The notes beneath the pieces are model-generated. The model did no database searches and was not told where the DNA came from. It saw only the letters and a list, made by a program, of their open reading frames with translations. Source: Escherichia coli (GTDB lineage Bacteria; Pseudomonadota; Gammaproteobacteria; Enterobacterales; Enterobacteriaceae). Taken from it: a stretch of 22,187 nucleotides of DNA. The position numbers and the translations under genes are program-made. This document shows, one piece after another, positions 13,012 through 13,075 of this stretch; position 1 is the first letter of the stretch; each line of letters opens with the position of its first letter. The stretch lies in NCBI RefSeq assembly GCF_003334255.1, contig NZ_QOWU01000067.1; one strand, 5' to 3'.

Positions 13012-13075
13012 CGTTATTTTTATCGCACAAGGGTGGGCATCCCTGCCCGTAATGACGTCCCTGAACCTGGGTAGG

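Follow-up and report, generated by a model that had tools for sequence, protein, structure and literature searches.

The short hairpin found in the spacer between fimA and fimI in the DNA analysed here, a 22,187-nt stretch from Escherichia coli (the window), is very probably the stem-loop of FimR2, a known 35-nt sRNA that is released from the fimAICDFGH mRNA and that lies at 13065..13031 on the minus strand. The hairpin is already known as a feature of FimR2, a fact not recognised in the initial annotation of this DNA. What is added here is the assignment of the hairpin to FimR2, together with the coincidence, at nucleotide level, of independent Term-seq and CLIP-seq data with the same element. 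The junction hairpin was already tied to CsrA and to FimR2, an sRNA linking fimbriae, flagella and biofilm. The deeply conserved part of the element is the CsrA-type hairpin and not the sRNA seed, which points to a role in cis in Klebsiella, Citrobacter, Serratia and their relatives.

The fimA-fimI spacer and FimR2

The whole of the window aligns with the region of strain GE3 that reads yjiC-uxuRBA-gntP-fimHGFDCIA-fimE-fimB-nanC-nanM, with the fim operon being found on the minus strand. When a 301-nt query taken from around the fimA-fimI hairpin was used to search complete E. coli genomes, matches were obtained in 4735 of 5426, with the corresponding features being annotated as fimA and fimI. 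The features of this region, listed in window coordinates and in the order of transcription, are as follows.

13630..13076, minus strand: fimA coding sequence, 184 aa, ending in TAA (13078-13076), from the ORF list and the annotation of an E. coli record with the same sequence
13075..13012, minus strand: fimA-fimI intercistronic spacer, 64 nt, from the sequence
13065..13066, minus strand: 5' boundary of FimR2, GG↓UUCAG, as set by the first nucleotides published for the RNA; similar to RN↓WUU, the RNase E motif
13031..13065, minus strand: FimR2 sRNA, 35 nt, UUCAGGGACGUCAUUACGGGCAGGGAUGCCCACCC, mapped here by the published 5' 18 nt and length
13060..13058, minus strand: upstream GGA in the single-stranded part of FimR2, 16 nt after the fimA stop codon and 18 nt before the loop GGA, from the sequence
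13048..13044, minus strand: hairpin 5' arm, GGGCA, from the sequence
13043..13040, minus strand: hairpin loop, GGGA, in which the loop GGA (13042..13040) is the CsrA contact according to published loop mutants
13039..13035, minus strand: hairpin 3' arm, UGCCC, from the sequence
13031, minus strand: RNA 3' end mapped by Term-seq, falling on the final C of CACCC, with the stem ending 4 nt upstream and UUGUG directly downstream
12472..13011, minus strand: fimI coding sequence, 179 aa, with its ATG at 13011, the start also used by RefSeq

Read on the minus strand, the spacer sequence is CCUACCCAGGUUCAGGGACGUCAUUACGGGCAGGGAUGCCCACCCUUGUGCGAUAAAAAUAACG, identical to that of K-12. The initial annotation had described within it the motif GGGCA-GGGA-TGCCC as a short stem not followed by a U-tract. 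The sequence confirms the motif, the stem comprises 5 bp, four of which are G-C, and both the tail found 3' of the stem, ACCCUUGUG, and an empty terminator scan agree with the lack of a U-tract. The position given at the time, about 13040-13053, was 5 nt too high, the hairpin in fact spanning 13048..13035.

No Shine-Dalgarno-like sequence precedes the Escherichia fimI ATG, with the region 13012-13030 reading GCGAUAAAAAUAACG AUG. Judging from this sequence, weak initiation could add to the low level of FimI. In almost all non-Escherichia genera of the spacer alignment, GAGGUG or GGGGUG is found 6 nt before the fimI ATG. The fimI reading frame is, moreover, open across the entire spacer, back to an ATG at 13143 within fimA, yielding an ORF of 223 aa (12472-13143, minus strand), and a 223-aa version of FimI is present in public protein sets.

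FimR2, formerly sRNA_35, has been described as an RNA of 35 nt, the first 18 nt of which read UUCAGGGACGUCAUUACG (Raad et al., 2022, NAR, PMC9723502). This published sequence matches 13065..13048 exactly, such that an RNA of 35 nt ends at 13031. As the 3' end implied by this length equals the 3' end independently seen by Term-seq, the mapping of FimR2 to this position is supported. The RNA so mapped shares with FimR2 its location in the fimA 3' UTR, i.e., the fimA-fimI spacer, its 5' sequence and its length. It likewise comprises a single-stranded 5' region and one 3' stem-loop, each containing one GGA, and its in vivo 3' end, as seen in public Term-seq data, lies just past the stem-loop.

Much is known of this RNA from earlier work. 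FimR2 presents one GGA in its single-stranded part and another in the loop, accumulates in stationary phase while being undetectable in exponential phase, carries a 5' monophosphate, depends on RNase E and is independent of both Hfq and ProQ (Raad et al., 2022, PMC9723502). Stability requires the stem, with stem-disrupting mutants being unstable and a compensatory mutant restoring the RNA. Mutants of the loop GGA lose CsrA binding in EMSA, an interaction also seen upon CsrA co-immunoprecipitation, and pairing with target mRNAs was proposed for the single-stranded 5' part (Raad et al., 2022, PMC9723502). At both boundaries of FimR2 (GG↓UUCAG and CCC↓UUGUG), UU follows. This agrees with the U+2 rule for RNase E, whose motif is RN↓WUU (Chao et al., 2017), and is suggestive of possible cleavage by the enzyme at exactly these bonds. 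When RNase E was assayed in vitro, an intermediate of about 40 nt and not the exact 35-mer was obtained (Raad et al., 2022, PMC9723502). Most of the phenotypes assigned to FimR2 stem from overexpression. The RNA had reportedly been detected at an earlier date, by Kawano and co-workers in 2005.

Folding and conservation of the hairpin

When a single sequence alone is considered, the hairpin is within chance expectation. Relative to shuffled sequences, the 64-nt spacer gave a fold z-score of +0.22 and a 131-nt context one of +0.30, neither of which is significant, and the z-score of the 35-mer was likewise not significant. When the spacer was shuffled with its dinucleotide content kept, 26% of the shuffles contained a Watson-Crick hairpin with a stem of 5 bp or more, and 2.1% contained one that also had GGA in its loop. 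A search of Rfam 15 with the region 12000-14500 of the window and E-values up to 10 returned only chance-level matches (E > 5), none of them near the gathering score of its family. The fold anticipated in the initial annotation was recovered in the 35-mer (13065..13031), where the minimum free energy structure consists of a single-stranded 5' part and the GGGCA/UGCCC hairpin (-9.2 kcal/mol), and not in the 64-nt spacer, which folds no better than its shuffles and for which the minimum free energy structure involves the competing pairing of GCAGGG with CCUUGU. This competing pairing (13046-13024, minus strand) hides the loop GGA and is rendered impossible once the RNA has been cut at 13031.

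The values just given (z-scores of +0.2 to +0.3, hairpins of comparable length in 26% of the shuffles and no match to an Rfam family) would be in keeping with a chance structure devoid of function. Such a reading is contradicted by the compensatory changes and the almost invariant loop GGA seen across genera (see below), as well as by the published mutational, EMSA, CLIP-seq and Term-seq data; it can be considered as already refuted and is left with a negligible probability.

Of the 4728 complete E. coli genomes in which the 64-nt spacer is present, 3266 carry it unchanged, with the remainder differing by 1-3 bases. Every variant inspected differed by a single base, as in the case of a G-to-A change next to the first GGA that leaves this GGA intact (O26 and others) or a C-to-T change downstream of FimR2 (ST131). 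A mutation in the stem was encountered in only one of 4726 genomes, namely, A-to-T in strain K56-43; as a singleton, this was rejected as a common allele. The 3' end of fimA is polymorphic, with at least 99% identity over the 301 nt being seen in only 487 of 4735 records. Throughout Escherichia, the hairpin is invariant save for G or A at the first loop base, while the flanking sequences diverge. The 5' seed and the 3' tail of FimR2 have diverged within the genus, with the seed not being conserved in E. albertii and E. marmotae and the seed region in E. albertii reading UUUUAAGGAAAUAUUUU.

At two E. albertii loci, fimC is interrupted by an IS transposase, such that the operon is decaying, and the spacer hairpin, GGGCA-GGGA-UGCCC, is intact. 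At the locus of E. coli F637 (positions 240-360 of that locus), IS1 is found in place of fimA, with the junction falling 1 nt 5' of the hairpin (...C↓CGGGCAGGGAUGCCC) and both the hairpin and fimI being left intact.

For the comparison beyond E. coli, genome contigs were scanned with a FimI alignment, yielding 60 loci. The peptide patterns used gave no Salmonella, E. albertii or E. marmotae, and E. marmotae, E. albertii and one Salmonella locus were added by exact-protein look-up. In this manner, 55 distinct fimA-fimI spacers of 61-84 nt were extracted, with the genera represented including Citrobacter, Klebsiella, Raoultella, Enterobacter, Kluyvera, Cedecea, Shimwellia, Erwinia, Pantoea, Serratia, Samsonia, Providencia and Proteus. 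The sole Salmonella locus in the comparison, from serovar Carrau, an atypical representative and not canonical S. Typhimurium, presents a Klebsiella-type spacer.

In a MAFFT alignment of 56 spacers, the homologous helix was 92% paired, with changes on both sides being seen in five of its six pairs. The covariation score was reached by none of 500 shuffles, and controls in which the pairing partner was slid scored far lower. Covarying forms of the stem include GGGCC/GGCCC, GAGCC/GGCUC, AGGCC/GGCCU and AAACC/GGUUU, with the GGGCA/UGCCC form being found in Escherichia and in one Citrobacter. The loop of the strongest hairpin contains GGA in 55 of 59 distinct spacers. As the simple hairpin finder employed sometimes chose a GGAUGG/UUAUCC pairing, its per-level pair counts were not used and the covariation seen in the alignment was relied upon. 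A pairing that hides the loop GGA can also form in Klebsiella and Citrobacter, between GGAUGG and the UUAUCC of a nearly invariant tail (conserved as GUUAUCC); no covariation in support of this pairing was seen in the spacer alignment.

A second GGA is located 17-20 nt upstream of the loop GGA in 48 of the 52 spacers that contain both motifs, often within a mini-hairpin of its own, and the position of the upstream GGA in E. coli matches that in the other genera. When a covariance model built from 54 non-Escherichia spacers was applied to the E. coli spacer, a match of 9.8 bits was obtained (E = 1.4), in which the E. coli hairpin was aligned to the upstream mini-hairpin of the other genera; the other matches of the model in the window (E of at least 0.5) were treated as noise. 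Because the match to the E. coli spacer is not significant, homology between the E. coli hairpin and the second hairpin found elsewhere rests on position and spacing. In K. spallanzanii, the GGA-hairpin module is kept in four paralogous clusters. FimR2 was stated to be conserved in Escherichia, Shigella and Salmonella, and neither Klebsiella nor Citrobacter is mentioned in the main text of that report (Raad et al., 2022, PMC9723502), such that the breadth across genera seen here represents a modest extension.

RNA 3' end, CsrA binding and the FimA:FimI ratio

A transcript 3' end at the fimA-fimI junction, which the initial annotation had named as the test of its reading, is indeed seen. Term-seq assigned a "primary" fimA 3' end to MG1655 position 4543708(+), a position that occurs three times in the supplementary table, which is divided into one tab for each growth condition, with mean read counts of 8,788 in LB at OD 0.4 and 18,238 in a later sheet, and that is absent from the Rho-termination region table of the same study (Adams et al., 2021). 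Given that the last base of fimA is 4543663 and the first of fimI 4543728, position 4543708 corresponds to spacer nt 45, i.e., 13031 in the window, 4 nt past the stem. Published values place fimI mRNA about 2.5-fold to about 8-fold below fimA mRNA. At the protein level, FimA exceeds FimI by at least 100-fold, an excess that transcript levels alone do not suffice to explain (Giese et al.), with the step-down in mRNA at the junction falling short of that in protein. As such, the earlier suggestion that a structure at this site helps to produce more FimA than downstream subunits stands insofar as the 3' end and the excess of fimA over fimI mRNA are concerned, while the weak-terminator mechanism that it invoked was not supported.

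According to the terminator reading, RNA polymerase would stop after the hairpin in a fraction of rounds at a weak intrinsic (Rho-independent) terminator or attenuator, such that more fimA than fimI-fimH message is made. Intrinsic terminators release the transcript about 7-9 nt from the stem, within a run of U. At the fimA-fimI junction, the GC-rich stem-loop, the strong RNA 3' end just after it and the lower level of fimI mRNA would each be in keeping with termination, as would the UUUU or UUUUU that directly follows the homologous stem in Serratia, Erwinia, Providencia, Proteus and one K. michiganensis cluster, where the element could, given this arrangement, act as a terminator. In E. coli, however, the tail is devoid of a U-tract, the 3' end falls in a C-run (CACCC) only 4 nt from the stem rather than 7-9 nt away in a U-run, the stem is of only 5 bp, and a promoter and terminator scan detected no terminator-like site within the spacer. 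Moreover, FimR2 requires RNase E for its production and bears a 5' monophosphate. Nor is a U-rich tail what has been conserved, with most spacers having 3-4 U among the first 8 nt past the stem. With no U-tract after the stem and an empty scan, the terminator reading is only partly supported and is considered unlikely, with processing offering a better explanation than termination for both the 3' end and the transcript step-down at the junction.

In the processing reading, the hairpin would serve as a CsrA-binding 3' cap, made after downstream cleavage or trimming, that would protect the upstream RNA from 3' exonucleases. The RNA so protected would comprise both FimR2 and a fimA-only message ending at the same nucleotide, and capping would thereby contribute to the excess of fimA over fimI mRNA.

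A CsrA CLIP-seq peak detected in mid-exponential phase (peak_443, 4543364-4543799, padj 2.4e-8) has its maximum at 4543683 (Potts et al., 2017), which corresponds to spacer nt 20, between the two GGA motifs and inside FimR2. The core CAGGGAUG fits the published CsrA SELEX consensus ruACArGGAugu, in which GGA is presented in a loop; over the longer stretch GGGCAGGGAUGCCC, 9 of 12 positions agree with the consensus, with the core CArGGAug agreeing at 8 of 8. A CsrA dimer can bridge GGA motifs that are about 10-63 nt apart, and in E. coli the second GGA, at 18 nt, falls within this distance. The site combines a loop GGA with consensus-like flanks, a second GGA and published occupancy, as reflected in CLIP-seq and EMSA. 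Because the Term-seq end and the CLIP signal are both present in exponential phase, when FimR2 is reportedly undetectable, the site must also exist on fimA mRNA species, which leaves room for a role in cis.

A further possibility, compatible with the assignment of the hairpin to FimR2 and which could reflect an ancestral role, is that the junction acts in cis, with a CsrA dimer bridging the two GGA motifs so as to stabilise fimA mRNA and/or limit fimI translation, thus setting the FimA:FimI ratio. CsrA binding in mid-exponential phase speaks for such a role, as do the reported stabilisation of fimAICDFGH by CsrA, the fact that the two-GGA geometry is kept far beyond Escherichia while the FimR2 seed is lost already in E. 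albertii and E. marmotae, and the failure of transcript levels alone to account for the excess of FimA over FimI (Giese et al.). Against this, any effect of CsrA on fimI translation or on the stability of the junction is putative, the loop GGA lies about 30 nt upstream of the fimI ATG, where E. coli offers no Shine-Dalgarno sequence to occlude, and the CLIP signal could arise from low levels of FimR2. A cis-acting CsrA site is, accordingly, viewed as a credible possibility, albeit one with somewhat less than even chances.

More tentatively still, the two GGA motifs, 17-20 nt apart and with the second in a covarying loop, paralogous clusters included, may represent an old module found at major-pilin/fimI junctions across Enterobacterales that acts primarily in cis via CsrA. 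The trans-acting seed of FimR2 would then have joined such a module recently and in E. coli only, given that not even E. albertii or E. marmotae shares it. CsrA bound at the junction would cap or stabilise fimA mRNA and hold FimI low. Because assembly of the type 1 pilus is ended irreversibly by FimI, and the length reached is set by the FimA:FimI ratio, a module holding FimI low would, in turn, determine how long the pilus becomes.

Other features of the fim region were also noted. Across the window, the minus (fim-sense) strand contains 12 hairpins that have a stem of 5 bp or more and present GGA in the loop, and the plus strand three. Just after fimB (about 15173-15152, minus strand; GAUACCA-GGGA-UGGUGUU; fold z = -2.5), a hairpin is found that presents the same CA-GGGA-UG loop as that of the fimA-fimI spacer. 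The "primary" fimB 3' end (4541591) lies about 4-5 nt after the stem of this hairpin (Adams et al., 2021), and a CLIP-seq peak with a weak padj of 0.09 (peak_442) ends on its sequence (Potts et al., 2017). The fimB 3' end may thus be built like that of fimA. A further hairpin, located within fimD (11340-11325, minus strand; GAACA-AGGGAU-UGUUC) and also presenting a loop GGA, is contained in peak_445 of the CsrA CLIP-seq data, the sequence of which ends ...GUGAACAAGGGAUUGU (Potts et al., 2017). Near the fim regulators, a single strong terminator-like site was detected, in the fimB/fimE gap (14822-14793, minus strand), where an 11-bp stem is followed by UUUUUAUCUA. The fimS invertible element spans 13750-14063 (314 bp) and is bounded by 9-bp inverted repeats, TTGGGGCCA. 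Within it, the best promoter-like site, TTGAGA-18-TATGAT (14015-14044, plus strand), which we take to be the fimA promoter, points away from fimA, such that the switch is probably phase-OFF in this assembly.

Comparison with known systems

Pilus operons are known to contain intercistronic attenuators or terminators, for instance, after papA. The fimA-fimI hairpin resembles these in being GC-rich, in its location just after the major-pilin gene, and in being associated with an RNA 3' end and less downstream message, yet differs in having no U-tract and in a 3' end that falls 4 nt from the stem in a C-run. Like sRNAs of the CpxQ, SdhX and MicL type, FimR2 owes its release from a longer mRNA to RNase E and bears a 5' monophosphate. 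Whereas those sRNAs end at the intrinsic terminator of the mRNA and are Hfq-dependent, FimR2 is found between two cistrons, is not followed by a U-tract terminator and is reportedly independent of Hfq and ProQ.

With CsrB, CsrC and the hairpins selected by CsrA in SELEX, FimR2 shares a GGA in the loop, closing CA...UG bases and a second GGA within bridging distance. Unlike CsrB and CsrC, it offers two sites rather than many and is processed from an mRNA rather than being transcribed from a gene of its own. FimR2S of Salmonella enterica similarly originates from the fimA-fimI spacer, contains two GGA motifs and co-precipitates with CsrA, although it is about 30 nt in length and exists in long and short forms. 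Finally, when the window is compared with FimR2 as published (Raad et al., 2022), the same locus, the same 18-nt start, a length of 35 nt, one stem-loop and two GGA motifs are seen, with no difference in sequence.
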